This document shows, piece by piece, positions 30,378 to 61,026 of a stretch of 64,000 nucleotides of DNA. Position 1 is the stretch's first letter, and each line of letters opens with the position of its first letter. Location of the stretch: positions 18,514,805 to 18,578,804 of the forward strand of contig OZ316894.1 of NCBI GenBank assembly GCA_973895155.1, read 5' to 3'. This DNA is from Marsupella aquatica (Eukaryota > Plantae > Marchantiophyta). The notes below the pieces were generated by a model that saw only the letters and a list, made by a program, of their open reading frames with translations, did not search any database and was not told the DNA's origin. The translations under genes and the position numbers were made by a program.

Positions 30378-30427
30378 ATCAGCCTATTCATTAAAAGTGT
30401 ATTTTCTTTTGTTCACAAATCAGTCTT

Positions 30428-34240: not shown

Positions 34241-34243
34241 GAG

Positions 34244-34771
34244 TTGACCGCGCATGCTTGGGCTGAACAAGAAGTCTGGGAAGCAAAGGCACGGCTTGCT
34301 GATGTCCAATATGGACCTGTACTCAACAAAGGACAGAGCTCTAGAAGGCTGAAGAGTATGTTGGCTGAGGAGACGAAGCAACCAACCCCCATTCTGAAAG
34401 GGCTAAGCATGGTATTTGTGGAGGCGGGAATTGGAGAGGTTAAGTGCAAAGTGTACAAGTCCACGGTGCTTGACCTAGGTGGGACAGTGGAGGAGAATAT
34501 AACAGAGGACACCACTCATGTCATTACTAAGTCATATCCCAAAGCCTGCCGCAAGTTTGGGAAGGGAGACATTCGCTTTTATGTCATGTCCCATAATGTG
34601 TTTGTGGTTTCATATGCTTGGCTTGTGGAATCAGTAGCAGCTGGGAAGTGTCAAAACCCAATGGACTATGATCTTTTTGAGGCCTGGCCACGGAAGGGTC
34701 AGGATCCTTACAGAGAGGACTATGAGACAACAAGTGAGGAATGGGTCATTAGCGATTCTGAATCAGAGTGA
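34244..34771 (+). CDS. BRCT-domain ORF (5'-truncated), probable CACTA-B cargo
   Basis: ILKGLSMVF...LGGTVEENITEDTTHVIT...VVSYAWLVESVAAGK...DY matches the BRCT consensus. Confidence 0.75.
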   Translation: MTAHAWAEQEVWEAKARLADVQYGPVLNKGQSSRRLKSMLAEETKQPTPILKGLSMVFVEAGIGEVKCKVYKSTVLDLGGTVEENITEDTTHVITKSYPKACRKFGKGDIRFYVMSHNVFVVSYAWLVESVAAGKCQNPMDYDLFEAWPRKGQDPYREDYETTSEEWVISDSESE

Positions 34772-35303
34772 GGAGTAGTAGCATCAGTTTGGACACAAGT
34801 TTTTTTGTATAAATCAGATCATTGAAATAAATGTGATCTTTGAACTAATGTACCTTGTTATGGTTGGTGGCAGTTGGGCTTATTTTACTGTTGGCGGATT
34901 GTTGTTTCCTCCTGCCTGGGGGTGTCACTGTAAACGTACTGGGTGGGCTCAAATCTCGGCGGTGAGATATCTAATACCGCTCTCACACCTATGCCTATGA
35001 CTATACATGATTGGACTCTGATATGGTCATGGGTGTACATGCAGAGGCGGTACATTTGAGGACAGCTGTGGAGGTGGTGACACCCTCAAATATTGAGGAA
35101 TTTTGTGTCATTCACTTGACAATAGGTACACTACTCGCAAACCTGTTTTTTTCTTTTGGGGTGGTTTAGGGTTTGTGAGAATTTATTACACGTTATGTTA
35201 ACTCTTTTGGCACATACAGTCAGGGATATATGGAACACAAATACCACCATTAGGCATCCCTGTTCACTGCTGTCCATGACTGTAGAGCTTCCAGCCTGTT
35301 ACA

Positions 35304-38300
35304 ATGCACCCTGGTCACCACCCTCCCCAAACCCAGCCCAGGGCACAGGCACTGCCTTTGCATCATCCCACAAGGATATCACGCCATGATAATAAGCTTT
35401 GGCAGCGTGAAAGGTTACGAATCAGACTTTCAGGAGCCAGTAGGATGAGATGTCCTTGTGCAATCTGCCAAGGATCCCGTACCAGGGGTCTGAATGAGGT
35501 TTGGCGGCATATCGCGGTTCATGGAAGAGATCCACGACATCGAGTTTGGAATGATCCTGCAGAGGAAGATTCTTCCGACGAGGAGTGGAGGTTAGAATTT
35601 GATGCTGCCAATGCTGCAAGACGGGCAAGTGAGGTTCTGCCTGGTGCATTTGACAATGTTGTAACTGGTCTCTGTGGGTTGTCAGCTCTCCAACGGGATG
35701 GTGCTCAGGCAGCACCACGTGACGAAGGAATTCATGTGGAAGAGATGGTGAGAGACATCTTCCAAGACTTGGATGCATTTCACAATGGGCTGGACAACGA
35801 AGAGGATACGGCTGCAGATGCAAGTGTGCCCCCTGTCGAAGAGCCTCTTGATGAGTTTGAGATAGGGCAGGAAACCCCTGGGCATGATGAGATGTTTGGC
35901 TCTCCCCTACAAATACAGGAAGGCAGGAAGTCTTTGTACCCTGGTAGCAAATGTTCTAAACTGGGATTTGTCATCATGTTCCTGAACATTTGCGGCAACC
36001 ACAATGTCCCCAACGTTTTAGTTTCTGAGTTGTTGGCATTCTTGCGAACAACTGTGCTACCAGATGGTAATATTTTGCCCAAGAATATGTACGAGGCAAA
36101 AAGATGCATATCTAATCTTGGATTGAACTATGATTCCATCCATGCCTGTCCTGATGGGCATGTTCTTTTCAGAAAGGAGTATAAAGAATCGTTGACATGC
36201 CCTAAGTGTGGGAAGCACAGGTATCAGAACTCAGGAAAGTCTATGGTTCCCGCCAAGGTACTTCGTCATTTTCCACTCATTCCCAGACTTCAGCGGATGT
36301 TCAGAAGCCATGCCATCTCGGAGATGATGACTTGGGCAACTAACAAGAAAAGTGATGATGGGCTACAACGACATGCTGCAGATTCAAGGCAGTGGAAACT
36401 CATAGATGAGATGTATCCCGAATTTGTTGCTGAGCCGAGGAATGTCAGACTTGGGCTGTCATTGGATGGGGTAAACCCATTTGGAGACAAGAACAACAAA
36501 TTTTCGTGCTGGCCTGTAACTATTTTGAATTATAACCTTCCTCCTTGGATGACTACAAAGCGATTTTTTGTTCTGATGGTCCTACTGATACCAGGGCCAG
36601 ACAGTGCTGTATCTGCCAACATAGATGTGTTTCTGGCTCCCCTAGTGGAGGAATTGAGAAAGCTTTGGGAGGAAGGATTTCTCACATATGATGTCCTACA
36701 GAGGCTTGGGAGGTTAAACCCATTCATCCTTAGAGCCATCGTCATTCTGACTATAGCTGACTACCCAGCCCATGGGATGATATCAGGCCAAACAACAAAA
36801 GGATATTGTGCTTGTACTATCTGTGGGCGCAATGTCACCAGTGAGTACTCCAAAGCCCTGCAGAAAGTGATATACATGGGCCATCGTCGTTTTCTGAAGG
36901 CAGATCACCCTTACAGAGAAAGACAGGCACTGATTGCACACTTTGGCAATGACATTGAGCAACGTGGACCCCCGACACGAGTGACCAAAGAGGAGATCAG
37001 GCAGTGGGGAGCACTGAGGGATGACTATATCAAACGAGGGGGCAGGGAAGATAGAGTGAGTGATCCAATAAAGCGATATGGTGTAAAAAGACTGAGCATA
37101 TTGGACTTGGAGCTCAAGTATTGGAGGGTAAGCCTCTTGGAGTTGATGCTAATTGGGATACATGTTTTGGTTCAGAGCATGTGCATTCATTTCGAAGAGA
37201 GAGACTAAACTTGAGGCATTTGCTGACGCTTTTGCATTGCAACGGTGCAGGAGTTTGAGCCAAGCAAACATAACATTGATGTTATGCACATTGAAAAGAA
37301 TATTTGTGAGAGTCTACTCAGATTCTTGTGTGGAGAGAAAGACACTGGTTCAGTGAGATTGGATCTTGAACAGAGGGGAATGAAACCCCATCTTTGGTTG
37401 AGGCCACATGCCCACAGAGCTGATGTGCTCTTGAAGTACCAAGTGCCCTATGTTCTGACAGACACAGAGTGGGAACTATTTGTGCAGAGGTTGAGTTCTT
37501 TGAAGGTTCCTTCAAACTATGGCAGTGCTTTCAAGAAGCATATCATGACTAGAAAGCTTGGTAGTATGAAAAGCCATGACTACCATATGTTGATGCAATA
37601 GGTGTTGCCTTTATGCCTGAGGGGCCTGTTGCAGAAGCCTGTTCGTAATGTGATCATGCGACTCAGTGATGTGTTTCGTCGTATTTGTGTGAAGGTTTGG
37701 GATGAAACACACTTCCCACAACTGACAGAAGATGTCACTCAGGTGCTGTGTGACCTGGAGATTTATTTTCCTCCCGCATTTTTTGATGTCATGACCCACC
37801 TACTTGTCCATGTTGTGGAAGAGCTACACCAATTTGGGCCTGTGAGTGCTCGTTGGTTGTACCCTTTGGAACGGTACATGAAGGTACTCAAAGGTCACGT
37901 GAGAACATATTACAAACCTGAAGCAAGCATGGCTAAAGGTTACATCAAGGATGAGACTCTGGGATTTCTGACCGAATACATAGCACAATATGAGCATGTG
38001 AAGACCAGGGTGTGGAATTCTGATGAGGAGGAAGGGGTGATAGGTGAAGTACTGGAAGGGGCTGCAACCACAAAGAACCTGACCATATCTATGAGAGACT
38101 TGGCACATGACTTTGTATTACACAACACTGTGGTGATGGAACCCTGGATACAGTGAGTGCATACATGTGCTATAATTCAGTTCATGAGCTTAAATGTTGT
38201 GTGCGTGTGGTTTTCTCCTTCAGCCTGTTCATGTTTACCCAAGTTAATGCTGTGTGGTTGTTTGTTCAGGGAGTATGAGTCATTGAAGGCGGCCCATTCC

Positions 38301-39035
38301 ACTGCAGGAACAACTTTTCCAGGTTTCATGGAGTGGATCAGAGTGGCAATTAGAGAGCATCACGAGACCCACCCAGACATGGATGCAGACGTTTACCTAC
38401 TGTCTAATGCCCCTAGCCTGAAAGTGAAGACTTACAAACGGATGAGAGCATATGGGAATCACTTTCGAGTGAAGGATGGTGACAGTGCCTACAGGGTGAC
38501 GAATGACTGTGGGCTCATCACTGTATTTGAGCAACAGAGCCACAATCACGACAGGGCCTGGATGGAGATGGGATATGTGGGAGAATTAGTTGACATATGG
38601 GCTCTGGACTATGGGGCGGTGTCCAGTCCTGTGATTCTTATGAAAGGTTCATGGGTGCGGCAGGATTGGCTTGGTAACAGGGCTACCATGAAGAGAGACA
38701 ACGACGGTTTCTTGCTAGCCAATTTCAGAGGGAAATTGCCCGAATGGTCTGAGCCATTTGTGTTTCCCAGTCAGGTGGAGCAAGCTTTCTTCCTGGATGT
38801 GGAAGACTCCCCAGGTTGGCGTGTAGTGTGTCATAAACAGGCCAGGCAACGTCGGATGGAAGGATCAAACCTTGAGTTTCATTTACACTCTCATAGTGCC
38901 TTTGATCGTCGGCGTTCAGACCAAGTGCCTGTAGTTCATGATAGCGGGGACTTCATTCCTGTGACAAGGGTAGATGCATTTGCTGAAGGAGGCGAATTCA
39001 GAGATGCAGATGCCAACAGTGTGCCTGTGCCATGA
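35304..39035 (+). pseudogene. CACTA-B TnpD transposase
   Basis: CPCAIC..H, IHACPDGHVLF, RNVRLGLSLDGVNPF, ADYPA, DVMHIEKN, KSHDYH, FFDVMTHL, YPLERYM, EPFVFPSQ. Introns ~37128-37250 and ~38154-38269; in-frame TAG at 37599. Confidence 0.93.
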
Positions 39036-39189
39036 GTAATGTGAATTGTTTGCATGGACATTAGTGAGGGGAAGGATGTGTAATAAAGTAATTCTGAAGC
39101 AACACAGATGTATGGATGGATGCCTGGTCATTGTGGGTGCATTGTGTTATACGGGGTGACCATAGATGACATGTTTTTGTGGTCCAGTA

Positions 39190-42100
39190 GGATGGAACAG
39201 AGTGACACAGAGATGTGTGAGTATGAAAGGAAAGCTATGGAACAACGAGCAAACGTGAAAGCCAAAATCGCAAAACTGGATCTGGAAAAGGATGTGGCTG
39301 AATTGTAAGGGAACAATTCTCAACTACACCCCTCCGCTGAGTTTGTGTGACATGAATAGTTCAATGTCGCACTGAAATTGTGACTGTATTCTCATATTGG
39401 AATGTTGCAGAGCCACAGCATTTTCAAAGAAACAAAAGGAGTACGCAAGAAGGGTGACCAACACTATCTTTGGGCCTGTGCGTCGGAGTGACAGGTTGAG
39501 CAAGAAGGTGGTACCTACAATGGCAGAATGTGGAGATGACATGGATGCTGCACAGGTGGGTGCAGACACTAGACAAGAAGATGCAAATGATGAGTATTTT
39601 CCAGAGGAAATGGATGAGGATGGGGGTTATGAAGATGAATACATTGCAGAGCAGCCCCAAAAGAAACAGGTAAGTAGTTTTCCCAACAAGGTTTTGAGTT
39701 AAAAACTCTTATTTGGAGGTTTCATATGTTCAGTACTACACATATGTACCTTGCTTAGTTCCTGACATTGTAGTTGGTGATGTGATGCAGCGTCCTGCCA
39801 GTTCTGTTTTGCCTTCAAAGCCTGTGCATGCACCATACCAGCAGGGGGGGCTGACCTCTGATCAAGGTTGGCGAGGTGGTAGTAGTGGTAGATCCCAGGC
39901 TGGTGCCCAATACTATGGCAGGGGGCAAGCTCTAGGTTATGCCCGTGGTAGAGGCAGAGCAGGTCCAAACCCACAGTCTCATGGGTTTGGACGTCCACCT
40001 CAACCATGGGGATGTGAGTATATATCTATATGCCAGTTCTTTGTGAAGGCATGGCACTCCTGAATTTCAGACTGCATATCAATTTTTGACATTGTTTGGG
40101 ATGTATTGGATTCAGACAACATGAAATTCTGTCCACCTACCATTGCATGCAGATTCTGCCCAACCTGATTGGGCAAATGCTAGTAATGATCAGTTCCAAT
40201 GTCCACAAGGACAGACATGGGTTGAACCAGGTTGGGAGGATGGTGGTGGGTCGTGGAATGAATAAGGTTGGGAAGGTGGTGAAGGTAATTGGCAAGGATA
40301 TCAAAATACAGTACCTACAAACGCTGGAAGAGGGGCAGGTAATGTCTGATCTTGTTAGCAATGGAAGAACTCATTATATCTGGAGTCCATTCACGTGGGG
40401 GGGATTCTGCACATGTATAATGATAGGGAATGTATGTGTGCAGGTTGGACAGTCGAACCATCGACTCAAGTATTCACTAATGCCCCTATGCAGATGCAGC
40501 ACGGAAGGGGGACAGGTATGTTGGTGAATGTTCAGTTATTTTCCTACAGTTTGTACTTAGTTTTCAGTACATATGTTTGCACACACATACCTAGAAAGTG
40601 ACATCATTCGGCCCCTGTACTAGGCTGGACAGGTGGTCTAGGGCGCAACAATTTCAGAGTGTAGTCCTTGCACAGGCATCTACAGGCAGAGCTACAGGTA
40701 TGTATGTTTGAAGAATTTTTCTTGAAGTGAAGCATTGAATGTTGCCGTCATCCATTCTGCTGTATGTAGTTCTCAAGCATGAATGGCATTGTATTTTCCC
40801 AGGTGGCTTCAGAACCCCAGGTAGGGTGAATGAAGGGGTGGCCAATACAACGCCCAGTACTACCGAGAGCAGTGCACGAGGGGAGGTGACAAAGAAAGGG
40901 AACGTAAAGTTGAATGAGAGACAATGGGTGGATGCTGAGTGTCCTCGCAAGAACCGATGGCATGCTAATTTGAAAGCTGAAGTATTGCGTTGGTTAGATG
41001 TGAGTGTTATTAATTTTAAAAAACAGCATCCAAAAGATTGGAAGACTGTATGTGAAAATGTTGCTGCCAAATGGAATTATGTGAGCAGTGATGATGGCGT
41101 GGACATAGGTTGCCTAGAGAGTACAGCAGGTAAAATCATCAAGCAAGAGAGGTGGAGAATGCATAAGGCTTGGAAGGAAGGTGGGGAGAAGCCAGATATG
41201 CCTCCACCAGCCAGTTGTGATGATAAAGTGTGGGCAAGGTTAGTAGCTTATTTTGTAACAGATGCTTCAAAAAAGAAGAGTTCACAGATGACCGAGGCCA
41301 GGTTGAGTGTTCAGAACCCTAATCTGACAGGAAGGACCGGCACTGCACCGACAGCTAAACGTTTGGTAAGAATGAATGGCCTAGCTATGTAATTTATGCT
41401 ACACTATGTACTGTTTTTTAGTGTAAACCCATACATGTAAACTTTGTTTTGTAGTGTACGTTCCCTGAATATTGATCGATAACTTGTGTTTGCCATGCAT
41501 GTGCAGAAAGCCCAATTGGGGCAAAGCCCTTCAAAAGAAGAGTTGAGGGCTGAAATTGTGAACACCCAAGCTCAAGAGGGTGCATCTGAATCCTCCAAGC
41601 ATGTAATTTATATGAGTTCTACTTGGTAATTGAATGACCTGCGTTGAATTTCAGGTGTACACTGTATATAACATTGATTGTGCATATATTGCCCAACATT
41701 TCATATGGAGTGATTGAACCTATACCCCTGTGTCATGTAGGGAGGTGGATCTTCAGTTACAGAGATAAGTGGTCATTTGAAGGCTGTCGAAACATGTCTT
41801 CCAGAGATCAATGAACGTTTGAATTCATTGACTGACTTGTTCCATGTGAACTTCAAGACATTAATGGAAGCTGTTGTGTCGGTGAGAGATAAAATTGATT
41901 CCAATTCTGCAGGAGTTCCACCATCACCACTTGAGGTGGCAAAGTCGATGCACTCTTCTGGCATGCCAACGACATGTAGGCTTGAAGGTAAGGCCTTTAC
42001 AACTGTGTGGGATATGATTATTAAATGTATAGTTTGAATTGACATTGTTTGTTGAATGTGTTATTTTCAGTAACATATATTGTGGTTGTTGTGTCCATAG

Positions 42101-42897
42101 AGAATAAGACAGGTGCTACAGAGAAGAAGTATGTGAACCTGGCAAATACTCGCTGTAATTTAGAGGCAACAAAGTTGTAGTTTGTACAAGCAACTTGTTT
42201 GACAGAGGGCAGTCAACCATTTTTGGATGAGGATGACATTGGCAAGGGAGTGGATGATATCAATGTTGGGGCAAATGAGGATATTAGCAAGCATGAGAAT
42301 GATACCATTGAGCCACATTCATGCTATGTAGATCTTGACTCCATTGCAGAGATAAATGATTTGTAGAATGTATCATTCTCAATGACAGGTGTGCCTCTTG
42401 TTGAGATAAATCCAACCAAATAGTTAGTTGGTATGACACTCCCAGGTGATGAACCTGCTACTGTGACAGTCCTAACAAAGGAACCTACTGAGCCTAGCTT
42501 CACTACTGTGAAGAGAGGAAGCATGCGCACACGAAGCAAGTCTGCTGATGGGAGCAGAGCCACGTCAAAGGTTTCATACAAACCTCCAAGAATGGTGCTG
42601 GCAGAAAGATCTAAGGTGGAAGTGGGGAAAGCACCTAATGCTAAGGGACAAAGTGGCTTGTTAGCTGTTGATGAGAGTGGAACACGAGTAGGATTTGGCA
42701 GAGTGCAGGTTGGTTCCACAACGTTCCATGGCAAGAGGATTCCCCCAGGTTATTCAGTAGTGTTAGTCACATTACTAGTGAAACCTAAAGCTGTCCTTCC
42801 CATTCCAAACACAAATGATGATCCTCCTCAAAAGACACTTGAAGATGCTGCAGGTTCTTTGGTATTATGGCCAAGCAAGTTCATAGAGGATCCATAA
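39190..42897 (+). pseudogene. CACTA-B TnpA/Ptta-like multi-exon gene ending in a Tnp1-like domain
   Basis: Many short GT-AG exons; KDWKTVCENVAAKW, VWARLVAYF..KKSSQMTEAR; final exon VGFGRV...HGKRIPPGYSVV...LP.P...TLEDAAGSLVLWP. Confidence 0.7.
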
Positions 42898-43469
42898 CAA
42901 TGTCATGCCATTATTTGTTTGTAGTGTGAGTCATGTTATGTAGATTTTAGATGTCAAGAAGCAGTACAAGAATCATGTCCTCTTGGAGATTCATAGTATC
43001 ATGCATGTGCTTTCAGTTATCTCATCCTGCAGTCATCAATTATGAGTTCCTGTTTTGTCTGAATTACATTGATCACATTGTAAACTATTCCATTGGAATT
43101 CAAATGATCTTCATTTTTTAGCAAGATTGTGATTGTGTTTAATTCTTATGAATGTTTTATGTAGAATCTGCTCATATGATGCTTTGTTTCATGTGGATGT
43201 CATTCATGCTATGTTCATTTCTTGTATTCAATGTGTTATATTTCTAAAGTTAGAACATCAGGTTTCTATGTATTGTAATGTGGAGTGCTCTCTCTCCTTA
43301 TGAACTGTCCCTCTGTGTTCATTAGTCATGGTTATAACTTGCATGTGAACCTTATTAGTTATAAACATGAGTATATAGAGTCCCAAATGGTTCTGTTGTG
43401 TGATGCGGGCCAGGGTCTTCATTGGTCTTTCCTGTGACACTAAATGGTCACACGCTAGTCGTTGTTGAA

Positions 43470-43752
43470 TGCGGGTAAGTCATGTATGTGACTTACGATG
43501 TGACTCGCTGAAGTCATATTGTAGTCACGTAGAAACAAGGCTAGACTCCACAATAAAGTCACAGATCAGTCACAAATGGGTATCAAGCAAGTTGCAAAGC
43601 CCAGTATCAATAGTGACTTCCATTTTTTGGTCTCAACTTTTGCAACTCCAAGGGTCACAGCGTGGGTCAAGTCACGTTGAGTCACAATGAAGTCACATGA
43701 GCCAAAATGAGTCATATATTGCGGTCTCAGTTCACCTCGGATTCTTCTAGTG
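43470..43752. repeat. CACTA-B right subterminal repeats (AGTCAC/GTGACT) and TIR
   Basis: About ten gtcac/gtgac motifs in both orientations, ending in tagtg. Confidence 0.75.
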
Positions 43753-45237
43753 GCAATAGTCTTGTCAGTTTTATGTTTCTTCTTTACTGGCTTCTTCTCA
43801 GGTTCCTTCGACAGTGTCTCAGTTTTCTTGCGCTCCTTCTCTCTTTGTCTTCGCTTCCCTACCACTTGTTTGGAGGCTGTCCCGGCCGTTGTTCCTGCAG
43901 TCCCGGTTGTTGTCTCCTGAGATATTTTTCTAGGCTTCGGAACTTCTTTGTTAACAACTACTGGAGGCTTGTTCACCACTACTGGTGCAACATTTGTAGG
44001 CTTGTTCACCACTACTGGTGCAACACTTGTAGGCTTGGGTAATGATTCTACCCACTTTTTTGCATTATCCATTGCAAACTCCTCCGCAAATATAATTTTG
44101 TTGTCAAGGAAAACACCTGATTCCGATGATAGGAATCCTGCCTTGTCAAGCAAATTATTTAAAATCCATGTCATCGGAAATGTATAATTCCCTTGGTGTT
44201 TATGCATATTAAGCTTCACATATTGAAACCCATACATGATGTCAAGTGGAAGAATCCCCTTCACTCCAACAGTCACCTTTTGAGTTGAATACGACTTAGG
44301 GAAAAAGCCCATTGCCAACACGCCAAGTTCTCCAGCTGCAGACCACTCAACATTGAATTCTGAAGAATACGCCTTTGATGGTAGATGTAGTTTAACCCAT
44401 CGTATCCTTTCATGGAGCTCAAGAATGACGGAAACAAACCCTCTTCCTTCAATTCCAATGAAGACTACAGGTCCAAGTACAAGAGTCTCCTGATCTGCAG
44501 TTCTGACCTATATGCACAAAATGGGATCCCGTCTCGTTGACGTGCTAAGGAAATCAAAATCAACTCTGGAGAACTCAAGGCCCCAACAAAAATCTTCTCT
44601 GCTCTGCTCCAACAAGAATCCCTCGGAGCAATCTGCGTCTGAAATCTGTGGTTTCAATGCATTTAGATAGCTCCCTGCAATAGTCCCATCCAGGCATATT
44701 AGTTTGGAAATCTTACTTTTGTAATTGACAAAAATTGGATAGGGATCATCTCTATCCTCTATTTGGACAGCGATGATCTCTATCCAATTTGTAATAAAGA
44801 TCATCTCTGTTCGATGAGAGGATACTGACGATCGTTATTATCATCTCTATCCTCTACTTGGACAGGGATCATCTCTATCCAATTCCTAATAAAGGTCCTC
44901 AGCATCGTCTGATAGGACATCCTCTATCGTCAGTTTGGAAATAAATGATATCTATGCAATTGGACAAGGATGATCTCCATCCATTTGGATAGAGATCATC
45001 TCTGTCCAATTCCTAATAAAGATGACTATCTTCTATTTGGACTCTACTTGGATAGGGACCATCTCTGTCCACCACACAAATATTCAACTTGTTACTGGGA
45101 TACTCACTTGGATTGAGCGATTGAAAGGCTCTGGAATCCTCGAGGGCCGTCTCCACCACGTCCTCAATGGATGAGAGGTCTGTCTCCTCTGTTGGCTCAC
45201 TGATGAGACACACTGGAATAGGTCTGGATGGCTCCAT
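43753..45237 (-). pseudogene. 5' exons of the element-G ParB gene (separated from the 3' exons by CACTA-B)
   Basis: Same strand as 32304-34240; frame cut at the CACTA-B end (KKKHKTDKTIA|). Its intron carries the same palindromic repeat as the intron at 33350-33540. Confidence 0.55.
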
Positions 45238-46135: not shown

Positions 46136-46790
46136 TGTCCGTACAGGGGTCATCCCTGTTTGCTATCTGGATAGGGATCATCTCTATCTGCTGTTTGGAT
46201 AGGGATGATCCCTGTCCAATATTTGGATAGGGATGATCCTTGTCCACCGTAGAGTATTGTAGAGGACCATATGAACTATAGCACTTTATTGGATCCTCTG
46301 GTTGGATAATGATCCCTATTCGCCGTTTGGATCCTCTGGTTGGATAATGATCTGTATTTGCTGTTTGGATGGGGATGATCCCTGTCCGCCATTTGGATAG
46401 GGATGATCCCTGTCCACCGTTTGGATAGGGATGGTCCTTGTCCGCCATTTTGATAGGGATGATCCCTGTCTACCCTTTCAATAGGGATCCGTGTCCGTGG
46501 TCGTTCTCCAGATGATCCCTGTCCGCCGTTTGAGGTATTTGCTTGATTGGACCCCAATATGAAAAGTTTCCTTGAATCATCCCTGTCAGTTGTTTGGACA
46601 GGGAATAGACCCGATCCACCATTTGGACAGGGATCAGGCGTGTCCGCCTTTTGGACAGTGACAGACACTATCCGCCGTTTAGGCAGAGATGATCCTTGTT
46701 CGCCGTTTGGACACTGACAGACCCTATCCGTCGTTTGGACAGGGATCATCCCTGTCCACCGTTTGGACAAGGATCATCCCTATCCGACGT
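46136..46790. repeat. Array of ~25-bp imperfect palindromes TTGGAYAGGGAT-N-ATCCCTRTCCAA (~28-bp period, ~20 copies)
   Basis: For example ttggatagggatgatccctgtccaa at 46195-46219. Further copies at ~33356-33540, ~44735-45070 and ~47990. Confidence 0.85.
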
Positions 46791-46977: not shown

Positions 46978-49900
46978 ATGACCGGAATATTTTTGAGAGG
47001 AGACAATGTGATATTGACAAATGATGGTTACGATGTTGCGAGTGGGACAGTTCAAAAAGTCAACCCGCAAGATAGTGTTCAAAAGATATTGTTGAGAGAG
47101 AATCGAATGGGAGTTCTCATTGAGAAAGTTTTTGACCGAACCACAAAACTACCATTTCCGATGCCTCGGGCAGAAAACCTTTTTGATGCCATTGATTCTT
47201 GCGTTATTTGGGATTTGTCTTGCGCATATCTATCAACAACAACAAATTCTCAAAAACGCATTAGTGTAGGTAGTTGTTCAAATAGACCCGAGAGTAATTT
47301 GGAGAAAAATCCAATTGTAGAGGAGGACTCATCGACCACTCCGAGGCAAGGGGATGAGGTTGAAATGTTCATCTTTGGGTGTTGTGTAGCCCTTGGAGTT
47401 GTTTTCAATACAAATCCAATGGAAAGATGTCACAACATTTTACTTGGTGAATCACAGATCAGTGTGAGGGTCACTGATGTCATTCATGGGAGTAGGGTTT
47501 TACCTTACAAACATAGTGGGGCTGAAACAATTGACCAGGCAAAAGACTCATGGGTTCTCTGGGACGTGGCAGATGTCCGAAGTAGAAAGAGTTTCTCAAA
47601 GAAGGATGCGGGTGATGATATCAACATAGAGCGGAGTTTTGTTGTGGAGTCTCCCTCAGCTGAAATTTCTAAAACTAATTGTGACTATTTCCAACGGTCA
47701 AATTGGATGTCAGAGTTGGTCGAACTATACATCGGTTCAGATCGAACCAATAGGGTTGCCACGGGGACCATCACTGTGCCTCAAGAAACGGCGGCGGTTG
47801 ACGATGAAATGCTTGGTGAGGACCATGTAGGGATTGCTGTGAAAGATGTGGTGGAATCACAATACTTTCCCAACTTCCATAGGGGAGTAATTACTTTGGT
47901 TCGGTGGAGAATTGATTCAACAAAACTACTTGCAAATGGGAAATTTTTGTCGGACATTTTGGTTGAAGGTTCAGAGAGGATGGAGTCGGTGGATAGGGAT
48001 GATCTCTATCCAAATGTAAATGATAGGGGAATGTTGCGCACAAGGCCATACAATTTCAACAAGAGGACTCATGTAGATCCGATTGAAAAGAAGAGAAGGC
48101 TATTGGAAACCAAGGCAGTTTCAAAAACAACGGAAGCTTCGATTGATGAAATTAAAAGAGAGAATTGTTGCAAGCAGAAATGTTGTCTGACTATGCCAAG
48201 AGAAGACATAGAAGATATTCGGATAGAATTTCACGGGATGTCTAGTGAGTCAAAAACATCACACATTTTCAACCTCTTCCACTACAGAGAAGATGATGTT
48301 CGTGATAAGGGGCACCATGTTCTCAAGGGTATGGTCGTATGTAGACATGCATTTGCAATCATCCATGGCTTTAGCCACACAAAATATTATGACTACAAAA
48401 GGAGATGTGGAGGGCTGCAAAATTGGGTTCCATGGAAACACGGGCTCCATGAAAACAAGGTCAAATACCTTGCATGCACGAGCTCTGTTGGAGGATTTTT
48501 TGACTCGAAATGCAGAGCCCATGCCTCATATACCTTATGCTGGGGCTCATTGGACAGACTCCACTGAATATCGTCTTCCAGCATGTTACAAGAAGCTGGA
48601 GATTTTGGAAGATGTGAGAACAAAGATGAAGGAAGAGGGGCTTCCTCCAATTACAAAGAATACTCTGTACAAGATTTGGAGCAAATCATTCGCAAACTTC
48701 AGTTTCCATAAAGATGTTGCATTTGCCAAGTGTACTCTTTGTTGTGAATACAAAGATAGTTTGATGCGAGAAAGAAGGAAAAAAGAACGTGCTGAAATTG
48801 AAGAAAAACGAGCGCAACATCTTTGTGAGAAAATGTCACGTAGATATGTTTACTATGCTCATCGAGTGATGGCTAAGCAACATCCAGGGGAATATCTTTG
48901 CATCATTCACGACAAGATGGATCAAGCAAAGACGTGGATTCCAAAAATGGTCAGTACTCCTAAATCGCTTTCGGGTCATGGGATGCCGCTACCTATTGCT
49001 CTCACAGGGATGTTGACCCACGGAAGGGATCCAGGAGTCTATGCACACTTTAGTGTCACTGGCCTTTGGCCAGGAGATGCCAATTTCACGGTGACATCCT
49101 TGGCTAAGTGTCTTCGAGACCTTGAAGAGTACAATGGAGACAAGACAGGTGACATGTTGGATGACCTTTATTTGGAACCTCATAGACCTTTCTTTCAAGC
49201 CCTTCTTGACTTTGATGCATTTTTTAAGGGATATTTGGAACCAAAGAGTATTCCAATGAATAGGTATATTGGTTCTGAAGATGCAACCGAGAGTCAGACG
49301 GAGACGGTCTTCACCCAACTTGGTGAGGATCAAGGAGGGGACATGCATGGGGAACAAGGCAGTCCATCTTTCAAGCCCTTGCCAAGGCACCTAACATTGC
49401 AAATGGATAACTCAGCAAAGGATAACAAAAACCAGGCTGTCATGGCATTTTGTAGTGAGCTTGTGAGTAGAGGAGTATTTGAAACTGTTCAAATGTCTTT
49501 TCTTATGGTTGGTCGTACGCACGAAGATGTTGATGCACTCTTTTCGAAGGTATCATATCAAGTTCAGCACAAGGAAGTTGCAACTCTCCTTGCTCTTATG
49601 GCAGAGATTTGGGAATGTGAGAGCATTCATCCAGTTCCCAGATTGATACAAGAAGTTGCATCTTACAAAGAATATCTTCAAACTTTCAACGTTAAAGATA
49701 TTCAAGGTCACTCAAAACCTGTATCATTTCTTTTCTCTATGAGAGATAATGTACCAATATTTCAGTATAAGTCCCATGTAAAGCAACCTTGGGCTCCAGT
49801 TGGTGGAAGGTGCATTTGGGCAACAGATCTGACAACAAATTCCCTTCTTTTACCTAGTGGAGAGCCCTTAGCTAAATCCATTGGAGAGATACACAAAAAA

Positions 49901-50719
49901 TCTGAAGAGATTATCCCATTTCTTACCAAGTACCTTGATTTTTTGAGAAGGAGTTGCACTGATGAGACATCTATAGCATATAAGGAAAGATTTCCTCTTG
50001 TGAAATATTGGGAGAGAATTGTGGAGTTGTTGACAAATGGGCTTGCACTAGAAGGGGAGGGAAGTACTCAATTTCCCTTGAAAAATGGATTTTGGCCTAA
50101 GACTAACCATGGCACTGGTTACAAGGTCAACCAACCGGATCAAAGTGGTCCTCCAAGTGAAGATGAGGAGAATGCGGAGATGACGGCTCTTCAAAATGAG
50201 GTCTTGGAAGAGATGGAAGATCAAGCACCACCATTTATTGGATCTCGAGCTGAGAGAGAACAAGGACGGTGGATTCCCCTACAGGATATTTGTCAAGGGA
50301 ACTTTGTATTTCTTCGACCCGAGGATGACTGGGAGAATAAAAATGGTGGAGGTCATTTCTGGTTGGTGAGAGCTTTGGGTTCGGTTGACCCTAAGCATGA
50401 AGTCCCAACTACATCTCCAACAAACCCTCCTCTGCCTCAACAATATGCTCCAATGTTTCCAGTCAAATGGTGGAGGCCTAAACACTCTAAACTTGATGTG
50501 ACTGAGAGTGCACGGTATCTAAACTGCTTCATGTCCACTAAGACATGGGAGCGAGATCCAGGGTTTGGTGAGAACGCTCAACATTGGCAGTATGCAAATT
50601 CTGCAATGTATGGTTTTAAATCTGGCATGAAAGAAGAAAACATGGCGGGTAGAGGTTTGAAGATTCCTCGAAATGTTCTACAAACTATCCAAAGTTATCT
50701 CCAAAGGATGGACAAGTAG
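46978..50719 (+). pseudogene. Sola-like (DUF7869-type) transposase of element G with three N-terminal Tnp1-like repeats; one frameshift ~48400
   Basis: CCKQKCC, VCRHAF, CTLCCE, IIHDKMDQAK, LQMDNSAKDNKN, VGRTHEDVDALFS, homologous by eye to 3542-7083. ORFs 46978-48567 and 48245-50719 overlap. Confidence 0.8.
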
Positions 50720-50964: not shown

Positions 50965-51290
50965 TTGGTACACTTTTTAGGCCAAATGTACACTTTGTTG
51001 CACTCAAAGCTACACTTTCTAGACCAAATGCACTTAAATGTACACTTTTTAAGCCAAATGTATGTTTTTTTCACTCAAATGTACACTTTCTAGGCCAAAT
51101 GTACTCAAATGTACACTTTTAAAGCCAAATGTACCTATTTTGATGTTCAAATATACACTTTTCATTGCCCAAATGTACACTCTTTAGGCCAATTGTACAC
51201 TTTTCTATCCCCAAATGTACACTTTTCATTGGCCAAATGTACACTTTTTCAAGCCCAAAAGTACACTTTTCATTGCCCAAATGTACATAA
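50965..51290 (+). repeat. Right subterminal repeat array (ccaaatgtacactttt) of element G
   Basis: About 14 copies, now separated from the right TIR by the P-like insertion. Confidence 0.85.
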
Positions 51291-51837
51291 ATCCTCGGGG
51301 GTCTCACTCCGCGAAAATCTCATATCACGTGCGACGAAGTATAGGGTCCGTTAATTGGGTTTCTCGGAAGACTTAAGAAGATTTGTGTAAGAACAATAGG
51401 GCCAACTTTATATGTTGGACAACTTGTAAGAATAATAGGGATATTAATATTTTTGACTTTGTAGATGGAAGGCATACAAAGAAGTTAGGGGGTCTTTGTG
51501 TCGGACTATGTAAAGTACACGTGTCACTATGTCATTGGTACACGTGGCACACATAACATTCTCAATATATTTTCCTAATTTTTCTAATATGTTAACATGG
51601 CAAGAATTTGAGAATGATCTGGTTTTATGGGGACTCACGTTTAGGGTTTGACCGGGATTAAGTTTGAAATTTTTCTGTTTAACGTGTCTCGTTTACCTCA
51701 ATTGGCCCTTGTCAGTCCCTCCCGTGTCGTTTCCCTCCACTATCCCTTTGGCCCCACCCGCTCTTTGCCTCAACAGAGTCTCTTTTGTTTGTACCTTGCA
51801 GCAAATGGCCTAAACGGGGTCTAAACCAGTTGTGCTC

Positions 51838-52660
51838 CTGCTTGGAGTGAAGGTCGGATCGAGCGAGAGTGTGCTCTCGACTGCACTTGGAGTGAAGGTC
51901 GGATCGAGCGAGAGTGTGCTCTCGACTACACTGTTGCTGGAGTGAAGGATCGACTCCTGTTGTGCTCTCGACTGCACTGCTGCTGCGGCTGGAGTGAAGG
52001 ATCGAGCTGCGTTGCTGCTGCGGCTGGAGTGAAGGATCGAGCTGCGGCTGGAGTGAAGGATCGAGCTGCGTTGCTGCTGCGGCTGGAGTGAAGGATCAAG
52101 CAAGATTTCTCGGAGAAGGATCGAGCTGCGTTGCTGCTGCGGCTGGAGTGAAAGATCAAGCAAGAGTTCTCGGCGAAGGATCGAGCGAAGGAGTGAAGGG
52201 GAGAGCGAGAGTGAAGGGGAGAGCGAGAGTTCTCGGCGAAGGATCGAGCGAAGGATCGAGTGAAGCGCTGCTACTTGGAGTGAAGGGGAGAGCGAGAGTG
52301 TTGCGCTCTCGGCTGTGCTGTTGCCGTTGCTGCTTGAAGTGAAGGATCGACCAAGAGTTCCTGGCTGCGCTGCTGTTTAGAGTGAAGGGGAGAGCGAGAC
52401 ATCTCAGCTGCGCTGCTGCTTAGAGTGAAGGGGAGAGCGAGACTTCTCAGTTGCGTGCGCTGATTAGAGTGAAGGAGAGAGCGAGACTTCTCAGTTGCGT
52501 GTGCTGATTAGAGTGAAGGGGAGAGCGACACTTTGCAGCTGCGCTGCTGCTTGAAGTGAACCCGGGAGTGAAGGGGAGAGCGAGACTTTGTAGCTGCGCT
52601 GCTGCTTGAAGTGAACCCGGGAGTGAAGGATCGAGCAAGAGTGTTGCGCTCCGGGAGGTG
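51838..52660 (+). repeat. GC-rich minisatellite built on gagtgaagg units
   Basis: More than 20 variants of ggagtgaaggatcgagctgcg... / agagtgaagggggagagcgaga. Confidence 0.85.
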
Positions 52661-54591
52661 GGTGTCGAGAGTGTTGCATTGCTGCTTTCTAAAACGGGAG
52701 CTGCTAGCTTGCTGAAACGGGAGGTGGCTACTGCAGGGAGTGTTGCGATATCTCAAACCGGAGTGCCAGGATTGGAGCTGCATTGCTGCGTTGCTCAATC
52801 GGGAGGTAGGCGCTGCCTACTTTGACGATCGTACTTGCTTGCTTGCTACTATTTGACGCCCAAATCTATCACGCATGGCACACCTAGAGTCGATCTGGTA
52901 GCGGTCATAGACGAGGAAGCACCTGATCTGCCCGTTTAGCTTTTCAACTATAAAATTCCTGTTCTGAGCTCCGTGAATGGCGATAAGCTCTTTGAGTATT
53001 TTGTCCTCCAGAGCTCGCCATGCCCTCGCAGATAAGGTTTGGAGCCACTGCTGAGATCCAGCTCCAACTTCCCAGCCGAATACTAGCTCAGTATTGTCGT
53101 CATTTGTCTCGACGTTGTCCATACTCATCTCTCCTTCTGTGTCCGCATCGACGACTTGACGCACATGTTTTTTGGATGCATCGTTAGAGTAACCGCGAGT
53201 ACAGGTCTCCAATGATTGCACTTGCCATGATTGACCACCTTACATGATCTCCATCCATGGGCTGGACCCCAGGAAAAAAATCATGTAACTTGACTTCTGT
53301 CGTCCCCCACACACCCGCACAAATCTGGTTCTCTATTACATGCCTTGGTGTCCCGTTGGCTGGTTCCTGCAATTTTCTTTAAGTCATCTAGAAGAGAAGA
53401 CTTCTTTAAGTGTTTACTCAGCCAGGGGGGACCACAGCCTCCAGCCATACTGGGTGGCGGGCCTGGTCAAGACGTGGATGACGCTCGTGCTTGATTTTAA
53501 ATTCTCTTTTGTTTCTCAAGCTTCTGGGCAAGGGCATTACCATTCTGGATTCTGAACTTGATCCTATTCAGGTTAGCTATTCAGGTCTGTTGAGCGATTG
53601 GGTTATTATTTTATTGCTGTAGTAACATGCATGGCCAATTGGTTGTCTTCATGTAATGGGAAGTTTTTGAAACTTAGAAATTGAATGGTGGTTTCAATTT
53701 TGTTCACAGGTTGCAAAAGGAATTGTAGAGGTTGTCATCAGCGCTTGCAGCAGTGAGCACCAACACTTGCGGTGAAGCAGTTTGCTAGAACACATAGTGT
53801 ACCTAGTGAATTGTAAGTTGCCTGTCATTGCACGTCTAATCGTCTGGCCATTCACCGAGTATAAAAAAATAGTGCCATGGCTATATTGGGCATTACATTA
53901 GAAGCGAATTATGAGAAGCTCCTTCTGCAGCATCCAGATGAATGTTGCTGGTGTGAACCTTGTGTCAAGTGCAGGGTTGGTGATGGGAATTTTGAATGGT
54001 TCCATTGCTTCTGCTTGAAAATGCGTGGAAGGCTTGTTACTAGGACATACATGGGAAAGCATGGCAAAGTTGTCACACGTCGTTGGAAGTGCTCTTGTAT
54101 AAGGCCAACCATTTGGCCTCAAAATGAGTGTCTTTTACGCAAGATTGTCATCCCGGACACGCTTGACATTGTAGTCCCTGATAGTATTCCACATTCAACT
54201 GAGCTTGATATTGTAGCCCCAGATAGTATATCAGATCAAGCTAAGGTTACAACCCATGGATGCTTGACATTGTAGTCCTTGATAGTACATGGATGCGTTG
54301 TTCATATATGACTAGGCCTTTGTTTGCAAGGCTGCAATTGTACCATCCATGATATATGAGAATATTTTTCATTCCCATTATGTGGCAAAGTTTTGCAAGC
54401 TGGCATTGTATTTATGTATGTCTTGGTTGGTGGGTGTTCAGGTTGCACTGTGTAGTTGACTTCATCTGGGAGGGAGGTTTGCAGATCATTGGAGCAGGTG
54501 CTATGATTAACCTTATCTTTGTCTATGGATTGCTCACTATCATCATGTCCCCCTCATATGTGATGTGCTTTGTGATGATTGCAGTTGAACC

Positions 54592-55266
54592 ATGCCGACA
54601 AGGACTTCAAACATAAAGAAAGCAACACAGTCCTCTGACAGAGGAGCCTCTTTGGAAGAGGTATTGCGTATTCCGTTGTTCTCTGAGCAAGAGATTCTAC
54701 AAACTAGCCCTCATGTTTGTGCAATTTGTGAGCATGGTGGGAAGTTGGTAATTTGTGATGGGCCATGTCACAGGCAATTTCATTATGTGGTTGGAGATGA
54801 AGCCCCTAATGACTCTTGCCCCTGTGTAGTCCTTCCCCTCCATCATGGAGGGAAGCCATGGTTTTGCCCAAATTGTAACCAGGACCAGGCCATGTGTTAT
54901 GGGTGCCGCACTGTGGGACCGTCACCTACAATTGTGCGAAAATGCTCTGATCGTTTTTGTGTACGATTTTATTGCTTTGGGTGTTTGGTAGCTGATGCAA
55001 AGTCCTGCCCACTGCATACATGTGTGACATGTTATCAGAGTCTTGAGGGTCAGATGGTCAAGAACATGGTACAATGTCTACGATGTCCAAATGCCTGGCA
55101 TACAGATTGTCTCCAGATGATCAAAAGCAAAGGGTTCGCTCATGATAGGGACATCTGGGACCATGAAGCACATGGACAACAGCGACAGATGTTTTATTGC
55201 CCCCGTCATCCTATTGATCCACACCTCAAGACTCCAATCAGGGACCACATTTCATGGCTCCAATGA
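54592..55266 (+). CDS. EDM2/NSD-like tandem PHD-finger protein (cargo)
   Basis: CAICEHGGKLVICDGPCHRQFH...CPNC...CYGC...C...C..FY...CPLHTCVTC...CLRCPNAWHTDC...FYCPRHPIDPHLKTPIRDHI. The last motif matches the EDM2-type HxIDxxLxTPxRDHI. Confidence 0.8.
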   Translation: MPTRTSNIKKATQSSDRGASLEEVLRIPLFSEQEILQTSPHVCAICEHGGKLVICDGPCHRQFHYVVGDEAPNDSCPCVVLPLHHGGKPWFCPNCNQDQAMCYGCRTVGPSPTIVRKCSDRFCVRFYCFGCLVADAKSCPLHTCVTCYQSLEGQMVKNMVQCLRCPNAWHTDCLQMIKSKGFAHDRDIWDHEAHGQQRQMFYCPRHPIDPHLKTPIRDHISWLQ

Positions 55267-55761
55267 TCTGAATAATGAACAAACCTATTACTTAGGTTTC
55301 AACGTCTTAGTGGGGTATGAGCAAGGCACATACTTAAGGTGCATCATGGGTGGTAGTACCCAATTTTATTAGTGTTGACATTTTGTCATAATTAAGGTCA
55401 CTAATAGTGCTGCATTTTGATGAGCAGAAGCACTAAACTTCGGGAATTGTTAGAAAAGCAGGCGAAAAGGATATTTTGTCCAAAGATATTTTATCCAACT
55501 TTAGCGGTATATCATGATTTTCACTGAATACATTTGCATGTATGATGGATTGCATTATAAAGTGTTTTGGCCTATTAGCACTTCTATTGTTAAATGTATG
55601 CTGACATTATGTACATTACATGAGAATGTGTATGTTGTCATTGCATCTCTTGAAGATCCTAATGTGTTTCCCTTGTGTGTATTTCAAATGTATTTGTGCA
55701 GGTCTTTCTGTTATCAACTCCAAAAGCAATGGTGCTATGCATGTTCTAGATTTGTATTGCA

Positions 55762-58700
55762 ATGGCAGCCCCTAAACCCAACTCTGTTAAATTAATACGC
55801 AAAGTTGGGGATGACAAGGCTGATTTACCAATTTGTGTTTTGTCATTCAAAGAAGGACACACCCTACATGATTTTAGGGCTCGTATTGCCTCTACTCTAG
55901 ACTTTGACTTTGATTTTTGGGATGAGAGACTTCCTGGTCGAGTGAAACTTGTACATGAGAAATTAATTGATCTGTCTGAGCTGGATGGAAGAGTTATTGT
56001 TGTACAACAAGAACTTGGAGATGGTGGGAGGATCCCACCAGTACCCTGTCATCCTTGCACTCCTGCATCATTGGGTCCAAATACTGGGACACCACAACTG
56101 GGGCCAACGGCACTAGCACCCTCCCCTGTAAGGGCTTCTTTTGAGTCACAATTGATGGGAGATGTCCCATCAAAGCTATGGAAAGATGAGTGGATGAGGT
56201 TAGAGAAATGGGTACATAAGAAGGGTTATGGTGATCACAATTGGAGAATTCGTACCTGGGATGAGGGGACAGATGTTCGAGGGCATCTGGAGTGTCTTGA
56301 ATGTAGGGAAACTTATGGCAATGCAGACAACTCTCAGAACCCTAAATCCATCTCCAATTGCTTTAGTAATTTTAAGACCAAACACTTGGTCTTCAATAAG
56401 CACAAGGATAACTATTGTCGGAGAAGGGGCATTCCTTCTACTTTGGTTCAGGTAGCAGACATCTCTGAGAAGCCAGAATATGATCATGCAGACGCCATCA
56501 AAGTAGGTGTTGAGATAGTTCAACGATTGAATGCTGAGCTTGGGGATGATGGCAAACTATTCTCTATTGTTCCTGATCCCAGTACTCCTGAGTATGTAAA
56601 CAGGTCTTTCCTGTTTAAGGTTCGATGTACTGTCTGTGGAATGCTTCACACTGACTTGTGCCCCAAGAAGCTTACCTTGGAGCCCAATTTGAGGACACAC
56701 TTAGTGAGTCGAGATCACTTGGATGCATTGGAGACTAGGCATGACACAAAAATGCTTGCCTTGAGGTCTGGGAAGAGGGGCAGGCCAAAGAGGACTGATT
56801 CTAGGGACCTACATCCTGGTCAGAGCGGGATTTTGAAGTTCTTTAAAGATGATGGGTCCCGGACAGGCAGCAGTTCAGGTTCAGGTTCAGGTGTGTGTGA
56901 ATCTGTTGATCTTGGTCTGAGTTTGCTTTGCTGGGGATTATGGGTAGAGAGAGGTGTGCCTCGACTGTTATGGAAGGGTATATCTTATGATATTTCTGGC
57001 ATTTTAGATGATCAGTCTGGGGGAATTACATGGCATTGTGAGCCAAGTTGTTGCTTGGATGTTTTCCATCCAAGTAGAGAGAGTGTTGTGAGTATAGCAG
57101 GCTGTTTTAGACACAAGGATTGCTTGAGGTTATCACAGAATGGAGGAGGATTTGAAAATCTAACTTGTAGTGAATGTGATTCTATAACACTAGAAGATGA
57201 TTTTCGTGGACGGGTGCACAGGGAAGCGGAAGCAGTAGTCCACAGAGGGAGCCGAACCACTGCTGGTGGTATACGTTTGGATTATTTGACCAACACAGAG
57301 TTAAGAGATCAAGTGCACAACCTGAACTCTGTGCGACGAAAAGAGCGTTGGTTGTTAGCTTTGCAGGCTCAGAAAGTATGTGCCTTGAGCACCAGGAAAC
57401 GAAAACTAGAGGAGTTGTTAGGAGTTGCAGCAGACAGGAAGGATTTGAGATTGTTTCTTAGGAGTATTTTGAATGGACACAGGAATGGTGCATTTGGTGG
57501 TAAGGAGGGTTTGTGGGATTTCTTGAAGGATGTAGCTCGCAATTTAGGCAGGAAGCCAAAAGGTAATCGTTACAGTAATAGGACTCGAGCTATTGCTCAG
57601 GCTATGTTCCAATTTGGGGGCCGTCAAGTTGCTCATTGTTTTGCACGAAACTTGACAGCCCCTAGCCTTGTGACCCTAAAACGTGATAGAGCAAAACTCA
57701 CACCTTTTCGAACCGGGTTACGGAAGGAAACCTTTCAGGAGATTGCTAGAGTGTTGTCTGCTGCAAAGCACTCATTGGGCATTGAGGGGGATGTGCCTGT
57801 TATCTTTGCTGAGGATGAAACAAGGATCAAAGAACGCCCTAGGTAATTGGAACTGGACATTTTTCCAATTGTTTTTTTAATGACTTTACAAGTAGCACTT
57901 GGCTGGAATTGCTGTGATATTGAAAAATTGCATGTCTGTGTTTCAGGTGGGAGGCAAAGTATGATACTCTCATTGGTTTCTGTGGACCTTCAGAGCAGCA
58001 TGTATGCTCCTATGGTTTGGAAATTCTAGTTGGTGAAGGTGATGAGGGGTATGATAAAATTGTAAGTACATTTGAACAATGCCCCAAGTGCATGTATGCC
58101 CGAGTTGTGATTGTGAATCCTCTGCATGAGTCCTTACCTAAATTGGCTGTGTGTGCACTTCCAACTTGTAATAAGTTCACAGCTTCTTGGGTACGAGAGC
58201 ATTGGGTCCAGTTAAAGGCTTTTTGGGATGAATATTGTAGAGCTATGGTAGGCCCTTTGCTTGGACATGCTAGTGATGGTGATGCACGTCGCCGAAAGCT
58301 GATGCTGGAAGATTACAGAGGGCAGAATGGATCATACCCAAGGTACGGAGTTGGGTGGGAAGGGTGGACATACTCTGTTTCAATTCTACCAAATGGAGAT
58401 TTGTATGGCTTTGGTGACCAAGACCAACCTCATAATGGGAAAAAGATGATAAACCCCTTAGACAGAGTGTCTTCTTTACTGGTGCTAGGAGATCAACATG
58501 CATCTTTATCTTATGTAGCTAATGTCTACAATCATTATCCAATTCATGAACATGGCATGGCTTGGGATGATGTGAATAGGACTGACCGGCAGAATTGGGC
58601 AGGTCCACAACGAATAGCAGCAAGAAGAGTGCAGCAATGTCTGAAAGATATGTATGAGAGGAGAGATGTACAACATGAACGAAGTTTAGGAACTCAGTTG

Positions 58701-60338: not shown

Positions 60339-60350
60339 ATATCATGTTAC

Positions 60351-60430
60351 TGTTTAGTTTTTGAGAGTCTGTATATATGTTTTATTTTGTTGTTTAGTTT
60401 TTGAGAGTCTGTATATATGTTTTATTTTGT
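60351..60430 (+). repeat. Perfect 40-bp tandem duplication in the transposase 3' UTR
   Basis: tgtttagtttttgagagtctgtatatatgttttattttgt x2. Confidence 0.9.
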
Positions 60431-61026
60431 TAATATTAGTGGGTGTAGTGGGATAGGATAGGGGGTGACGGATTGGCAACTTGAGATCCTTTCTCAATTA
60501 GGGGTTCAATTCCCCTCCGTCACATGTTACATCTCTCAACATAAGTTTTAAATGGAGTATGGATGGAGCATGGGATTGGTGATCAATGGGTGGAATGGAT
60601 TATTTATGTTGTGACCTTAAAGGCCATCCCACTTATGCACGTAAGGTTTATATTGGGATGACCTTTTAGGTACACAATATAAATGATGCATTGAAATGAT
60701 CAAAGTTTAAGGTCGACAAAGGTGCAAGAACTGTTGCAGGGCGTGCCATGTCTGACATACGACTTCACAAGGTACTGACATAGACTTATCTTTTCTTTCT
60801 AGGCATTTTATATTGATATGTGACACTTTACTTCACAAATTATAGGGGCAATACAATTTGGATTTTAGACTCTTAGAAGAAAGAAAGAGGGAGGAAAAAA
60901 AATTTTCAACTTAATAAGTATGGGGGTCTAGGCATGAAAACGTCGCAGGTGATGGGGGGGTCCTCCATATAGTGAGACCCCCGAGCATAAATCAAATAAT
61001 AATACACTTTTAATGAATAGGCTGAT

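Follow-up and report, generated by a model that had tools for sequence, protein, structure and literature searches.

Element-specific palindromes in a liverwort DNA transposon, putative binding sites of its own predicted ParB-fold protein

Element G, its two genes and the elements nested in it

The window analyzed here, a stretch of 64,000 nucleotides from a contig of the liverwort Marsupella aquatica, contains a DNA transposon, designated element G, that is bounded by 26-bp TIRs flanked by CTAG and whose insertion splits an EnSpm tnp2-like reading frame (HHVRL / GLTADG). G proper comprises about 11.4 kb and has two genes, of which the accessory gene lies on the minus strand and the DUF7869-type transposase gene on the plus strand (Table 1). 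Both genes are broken in this copy, which is therefore dead. The comparison element E1 lies at the start of the same window.

Table 1. Features of elements G and E1 and of the elements nested in G
Feature	Position	Strand	Remarks
Comparison element E1	1 to about 8400		ParB-methyltransferase gene
Left TIR of G, 26 bp	30378..30403	+	CTAG before it at 30374-30377
Left subterminal AAATGTACACTT repeats	30429..30506	+	4 copies, period 22
Two half-sites or decayed sites	30581..30644 (starts 30581, 30620)		Downstream of the ParB-like gene
NIF/HAD phosphatase-like 3' part of accessory gene	30786..31819	-	Motif DLNKIL; split over two frames
Solo palindrome	31869..31893		In a putative intron of the accessory gene
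Exon with conserved helical region after ParB-N	32307..33284	-	Premature stop near 33187; aligns with homologues and E1
Three palindromes, period 78	33357..33537 (starts 33357/33435/33513)		Inside intron 33557-33285
ParB/Srx-fold exon (predicted), signature SGQHS	33558..34226	-	Fold model and structure searches
Nested EnSpm/CACTA element	34230..43752 (approx.)	+	Splits the accessory gene; right end TAGTG; no G site
N-terminal exon of accessory gene	43753..44700	-	Premature stop near 44510; blastp to 13 homologues
Seven palindromes	44735..45072		Upstream of the homologous coding start, in the putative first intron of the accessory gene
Single palindrome	46070		Additional to the sites of the original prediction
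Main array	46167..46787		14 recognizable palindromes, period 28, 7 at ≤3 mismatches; between the divergent genes
DUF7869 transposase gene	46978..50719	+	Frameshifted near 48400; Pfam DUF7869 E 8e-43
Only coding-DNA palindrome	47989..48013		In a variable linker of the transposase
Right subterminal AAATGTACACTT array	50968..51287	+	
Nested element H	51294..60985	+	8-bp target duplication CATAAATC; 33 bp inside G's right end; no G site
Right TIR of G	61001..61026	-	Then CTAG

The transposase, which is presumably Sola-like, has 106 homologues at E ≤1e-40, the closest named ones in the liverworts Calypogeia fissa and Riccia sorocarpa and others, more remote, in mosses and a clubmoss; the term 'DUF7869' is not mentioned in the literature searched. 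Its N-terminus (46978-48300) contains about three copies of a domain that is also present in the accessory gene of the nested EnSpm element, and homologues carry a precomputed PF26133 annotation. Close to both ends of G, the AAATGTACACTT repeats, which are likely to act as transposase sites, form a near-palindromic family that is distinct from the 25-bp palindrome described below, a separation already made in the original prediction. These 12-mers have the same orientation on the plus strand at both ends, and a variant is found within the TIR.

A profile of the exon at 34226-33561 gathered 112 relatives. The model of the ParB domain, computed from 73 sequences, has a pLDDT of 92.9, and the top eight rows of the VIA comparison all belong to the ParB/Srx superfamily (Z 7.6-4.8, with an rmsd of 4.5 over 124 residues for the best row), the top matches being Pnob8, PadC, KorB, SerK, SbnI, sulfiredoxin and Atu1540. 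Foldseek ranked Noc and ParB first (E 0.003-0.008; Noc 2.6e-3). On these scores, which are moderate (Z below 8, Foldseek E above 0.001), the protein is predicted to adopt the ParB/Srx fold; profile searches of the PDB with the family retrieved no ParB, and Pfam gave weak DndB matches alone, for 3 of the 73 members. Within the signature SGQHS, H125 is invariant and G123, Q124 and S126 are nearly invariant among the 73 sequences. The arginine of the GxxR motif of ParB serves CTP, and the SGQHS signature is without it.

The conserved helical region that follows ParB-N occupies the place of the DNA-binding domain of ParB and, to judge from the alignment, is a candidate for such a domain, although no Pfam or PHROG profile of an HTH matches there. 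The rest of the same exon, examined by eye, is probably a methyltransferase remnant; no methyltransferase profile matches the exon. Pfam NIF matches to the 3' part of the gene have E-values of 3e-7 and 1e-5, and the homologue P0091 combines the ParB-like and NIF parts in a single protein. Among the 42 open reading frames of the window that were scanned, none matched ParA.

Two nested elements interrupt G. The EnSpm element has no left CACTA end (34226-34240), and the reading frame is not continuous across the two pieces of the ParB-like exon; a neighboring deletion is likely. Element H, which has short TIRs, contains PHD-finger genes together with a large gene (55762-60338) that is frameshifted and has no Pfam match at E ≤1. 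We take its motifs and the length of its target duplication to be reminiscent of P-element transposases, a type that is, to our knowledge, unusual for a land plant. Contigs of run X2 end loosely at 51293 and 60986 and carry G's own terminal sequence; therefore, copies of G without H exist. Chromatin-type cargo recurs in or beside several elements of the window (7930-8328, 28732-29409, 34244-34771 and 54592-55266), as PHD fingers in E1 and H and, preceding EnSpm-like genes, as one SET and one BRCT domain.

The palindromes of G and E1

The array of 25-bp palindromes that the original prediction placed between the divergent ParB-like and transposase genes is real and has a period of 28 bp. Its size had been put at about 20 copies, but only 14 full sites are recognizable in 46136-46790, and a count of around 20 requires the inclusion of half-sites and decayed slots. 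The refined consensus is TTGGAYAGRGAT-S-ATCYCTRTCCAA, with R/Y at positions 9/17, and 25 of 26 sites have C or G at the center, hence the GATC that had been noticed in many of them. Scanning the 64-kb window for the palindrome consensus yielded 14 matches at ≤3 mismatches, as opposed to 0 in 100 shuffles, and 28 sites at ≤7 mismatches, as opposed to 0.83 expected. All 28 lie within G's own 11.4 kb, with none in the nested elements and none in the remaining window, and 27 of them are in non-coding DNA: besides the 14 of the main array, 11 fall within introns of the ParB-like gene and a single site is present at each of 30620 and 46070, the 28th being in the transposase linker. The outliers that had been reported in both halves of the ParB gene and within the transposase coding sequence are indeed present (Table 1), those of the ParB gene falling in introns. 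Intron 33557-33285 is backed by homologous proteins and by GT..AG ends; the other site-bearing introns are putative, being based on splice signals, and on the same basis the main array is probably located in a 5' intron (45962-46960) of the transposase gene.

When the five clusters, which are built on different units (78 bp, irregular, 28 bp, solo and coding), are compared, the core is 72–86% alike and the 12-bp flanks 14–38%. The coding-region site is retained in a subfamily from run X4 that has diverged by 12%, and three of its four listed changes fit the consensus (P 0.005-0.013), but, with 4 changes in 25 positions, it does not vary less than the average of the contig (61 in 503); in the X2 record 3 subfamily, this site is broken, its right half being lost. 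In run X6, an unrelated sequence seems to have inserted at the GATC (48001-48004) of the coding palindrome, with duplication of these four letters (loose ends).

E1 parallels G in the distribution of its palindromes, with a different sequence, much as had been claimed. Its palindrome, GCGATAC-NN-GTATCGC, has a 16-bp core that is often extended to 36 bp by outer AATGC/GCATT; all seven sites are within E1 (919..7769), two of them in putative introns of the ParB-methyltransferase gene. The fused domains differ, being NIF phosphatase-like in G as against an N6/N4 methyltransferase in E1 (Pfam N6_N4_Mtase E 3e-7). The E1 methyltransferase (1826-3376) retains the DIPY and DLCCGTG motifs and, therefore, could still catalyze m6A or m4C methylation. 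The profile of the G ParB domain hits E1 at E 0.034, and a comparison of the G and E1 profiles was not significant; modeled from its sequence alone, the E1 ParB region yielded no confident structure (pLDDT 34.9). The E1 protein aligns with the conserved region that follows ParB-N in G. With a blind palindrome finder, self-pairing sites numbered 24 for G (null maximum 3 in 20 shuffles) and 6 for E1 (null maximum 2), whereas H had 2 and the nested EnSpm element 1 (null maxima 2-3). H had at first appeared to carry palindromes, with a finder score of 9, which reflects an ordinary tandem repeat and is gone once self-pairing is required.

Relatives of the transposase in metagenomes

Metagenomes were scanned with the transposase, and the best 80 of 361 loci were taken, of which 60 were left after de-duplication; the 51 of at least 3 kb were examined for palindromes. 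A palindrome with the core GTGGCCAC, with at least 6 sites, is the top family in 17 of these 51 loci and is mostly arrayed upstream of the transposase, the arms and periods differing from locus to locus. Locus L001 has another site type, in 13 copies, and a strict pairing test of the L008 family showed no excess over the null (3 vs 3). L012 (1076-12356), a complete element, is 11.3 kb long and has 44 palindromes, some of them subterminal, together with three decayed NIF-like repeats, apparently phosphatase remnants, and no detectable ParB domain. Remnants of ParB were recognized in 3 of the 80 loci (L030, L036 and L048), each divergent from the transposase and with a 32-bp palindrome array in between; these are weak matches (iE 0.001-0.04), and in L030 the array was picked out visually, using a pattern derived from that array itself. 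Fifteen of the 17 loci with GTGGCCAC-core arrays have no ParB remnant in the DNA examined. With copies so decayed and a profile so distant, loss of ParB, action in trans and binding of the arrays by the transposase are all compatible with such loci. The motif of G itself, searched for at ≤4 mismatches, has no match in the 751 kb of related loci, the metagenome scan with the ParB query returned no loci, and viral contigs yielded neither loci for the ParB or transposase queries nor an exact palindrome.

A transposase tree was built from 32 of 39 chosen rows (L008, L035, L036, L037, L054, L059 and L067 were dropped); its deep branches are unsettled, and the GTGGCCAC core falls in one clade of 19 rows with support of 99/98. 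The comparison of palindromes with ParB and transposase phylogenies that had been suggested earlier succeeds in one respect, in that palindrome families follow transposase clades, and fails in the other, the related ParB genes being too decayed for a tree. Because of this decay and of the linkage between the two genes, co-evolution of the sites with ParB and with the transposase are inseparable.

The probable binder of the palindromes and its known analogues

On balance, we consider it probable that the palindromes of G are binding sites of its own ParB-fold protein, which would regulate the element rather than partition it. A role of this protein in segregation is unlikely because no ParA was found and is, for an integrated element, not plausible. 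The proposal that each subfamily possesses its own operator or parS-like site is accordingly retained for the element-specific internal sites and the predicted ParB fold, with 'parS-like' reduced to an analogy, given sites of 25-36 bp and the lack of a ParA among the genes scanned. Under the favored scheme, the protein encoded by the second gene of G would bind the 25-bp double-stranded sites as a dimer and regulate the genes of its own element, the helical region after ParB-N probably reading each 12-bp half-site. Where sites are clustered, at the divergent promoters and within introns, they might, though we would not put this at even chances, load many dimers and so bring the fused effector to the element; with similar reserve, we envisage that this effector, phosphatase-like in G and a DNA methyltransferase in E1, keeps the element active or tunes its transcription in the manner of VANC. 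It is doubtful that the protein slides in a nucleotide-gated fashion like ParB, Noc or KorB. The sites would multiply through tandem duplication and turn over together with the protein, so that each family would address its own copies only, also in trans. As G has a second, subterminal repeat family, two binders are plausible. In favor of binding by the ParB-fold protein are the confinement of the sites to G, the sharing of the core but not of the flanks between clusters, arms that do not covary, the excess of self-pairing sites in G and E1, the fold matches, the arrays beside all three ParB remnants, the retention of the coding-region site in the X4 subfamily and the published red-algal arrangement. 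Speaking against it are the lack of an HTH profile match, the missing GxxR arginine, the moderate fold scores, the 15 arrays that show no ParB remnant, the complete element L012, the weakness of the three ParB remnants, the broken coding-region site of the X2 subfamily, the average rate of change of this site in X4 and the L008 family.

The main competing view is that the palindromes are sites of the transposase, contacted by its long N-terminal region and serving as internal enhancers of synapsis or self-activation, with the ParB-like gene a passenger. The concordance of palindrome families with transposase clades, exemplified by the GTGGCCAC core, fits such an arrangement, as do the many arrays without a detectable ParB gene, the subterminal copies of the motif in L012 and L046, and a weak match of the transposase N-terminus to Pfam Transposase_23 (E 0.24). 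According to the accessible part of a recent report, Spm TnpA and the AtMu1 transposase bind dense clusters of family-specific motifs and activate their own elements, but these clusters are terminal (10.64898/2026.08.24.746577), whereas the 25-mers of G are internal, avoid the termini and coexist with a separate subterminal motif. The sites of G and E1 are, moreover, concentrated in introns of the ParB-like genes, and the red-algal arrays, as far as that paper is accessible, accompany the accessory gene PAG3 on another type of transposase (10.1101/2025.02.11.637652). We regard transposase binding as unlikely.

Other readings dispense with a binding protein. Slippage and gene conversion could have spread a neutral minisatellite within the element, which would agree with the obvious local tandem units of periods 28 and 78 and with Y/R variation at CAG/CTG, as would be expected from methylcytosine decay; yet the clusters have the palindromic core alone in common, and 13 related loci, with periods of 24 to 114 bp, conserve the central 10 bp (identity 0.64) over the outer arms (0.48) and flanks (0.31). 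The core is also enriched near the transposase, with 128 occurrences in 192 kb (25 loci) vs 40 in 218 kb farther away and 5-10 in shuffles, and neutrality thus appears improbable. A function of the array as RNA or single-stranded DNA hairpins, either as a source of small RNAs or as an extrusion signal, is argued against by the absence of covariation between the arms (10 of 25 Watson-Crick, 10 T-G and 5 C-A mismatches; Fisher p 0.44); there is no Rfam match, and the strong folding of the array (z -15.8 and -15.3 for the two strands) is a property of any palindrome array, so that, even with the array probably in a transcribed intron, we deem this very improbable. The idea of the 25-mer as a satellite or tiny mobile element in its own right, which the solo copies at 31869 and 47989 could suggest, is scarcely credible: the satellite or MITE scattered outside G that had been named as a counter-possibility is not seen in the 64-kb window, with 0 of the 28 sites outside G and no target duplications at the two solo sites; the linker around the coding site has the same length, 24 residues, as that of the closest homologue; and the summed contig depth of the array is close to that of the ParB-gene flanks in four of four runs, a weak measure that does not represent copy number. 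Even when the neutral, hairpin and mobile-repeat readings are pooled, we find an explanation of this kind doubtful, and binding by the ParB-fold protein is the interpretation that we compare with known systems below.

As far as the reports are accessible, the association of a ParB-like accessory gene with inverted-repeat arrays is already in print for red algae, and a ParB-methyltransferase gene for a brown alga; no land-plant report of the design was found in the literature searched, most subscription journals lying outside the coverage of the search. In Plavaka elements of the red alga Bostrychia, PAG3 encodes a ParB-like N-terminal domain and a 2OG oxygenase, adjoins tandem inverted-repeat arrays and has been proposed, without a test, to bind and modify its own element (10.1101/2025.02.11.637652). 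G is similar in that its ParB-like gene is part of a DNA transposon and has tandem inverted repeats next to it. In contrast to what is described of PAG3, G and E1 reside in a land plant, the transposase of G is of the DUF7869 type, the Pfam partner is NIF in G and N6_N4_Mtase in E1 rather than a 2OG oxygenase, the sites of G are also found in introns and, in one case, in coding sequence, and two families with exclusive sites occur side by side. The giant TIR element Sola1-1_Ec32 of Ectocarpus carries, on the other strand from its transposase, a gene that combines ParB-like and N4/N6 methyltransferase domains; self-binding was again proposed without a test, and the accessible text does not mention palindromes for this element (PMC12477816). 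E1 has the same ParB-like and methyltransferase pair, whereas the G protein is phosphatase-like and without a methyltransferase profile match.

VANDAL elements have a Mutator-type transposase, unlike G with its DUF7869 transposase and predicted ParB-fold protein, which are not of the Mutator and VANC types. In Arabidopsis, to the extent that the source is accessible, the VANC motifs of VANDAL elements, such as the 9-mer YAGTATTAY of VANC21, are located in introns, intergenic and terminal non-coding DNA, have been multiplied in tandem and co-evolve with the accessory protein (PMC5735166). The sites of G resemble them in occupying introns and the divergent promoter region (27 of 28 non-coding), in their tandem repetition and in family turnover; they differ in being palindromes of 25-36 bp accompanied by a ParB-fold protein, and sequence-specific loss of DNA methylation is known for the anti-silencing VANC system, whereas our case is made from sequence. 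With ParB-parS, Noc-NBS and KorB, G shares the predicted ParB-N fold, palindromic multi-copy sites and paralogues of switched specificity, which in ParB, according to the accessible text, can be brought about by four residues (PMC7383237); G differs in that no ParA was found, the sites are longer, the GxxR arginine is missing and no HTH was detected. The fusions of a ParB-type HTH to chlorophyte Dam methylases described by Iyer 2016 (PMC4738411), in the portion accessible, represent a different system.

In this window, a land plant supplies a natural pair for the study of specificity: the two elements are related, and their sites, which are exactly defined, differ from one another, as do their fused effectors. 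A cross-binding test would therefore be simple. If binding by the ParB-fold protein holds true, it would constitute a second plant transposon self-recognition system beside VANC, made from a bacterial fold, and would bear on the persistence of 10-kb DNA transposons under methylation. In an extended version that we consider a long shot, a nucleotide-gated ParB clamp would load on the family palindromes, slide along the element with interchangeable effectors, among them the DNA methyltransferase of E1 and a CTD-phosphatase-like domain in G, and shield or activate its own family in early land plants; this would amount to an addressable anti-silencing system, testable in Marchantia and reusable for targeted chromatin editing. 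As for insertion sites, Sola1 transposons have TIRs and a 4-bp target duplication. Their preferred target is AWWT (PMC3845634). L012, flanked by ATAT, fits this preference and G, flanked by CTAG, does not, in a comparison of two sites only, while a 2-bp TA duplication fits both elements equally.
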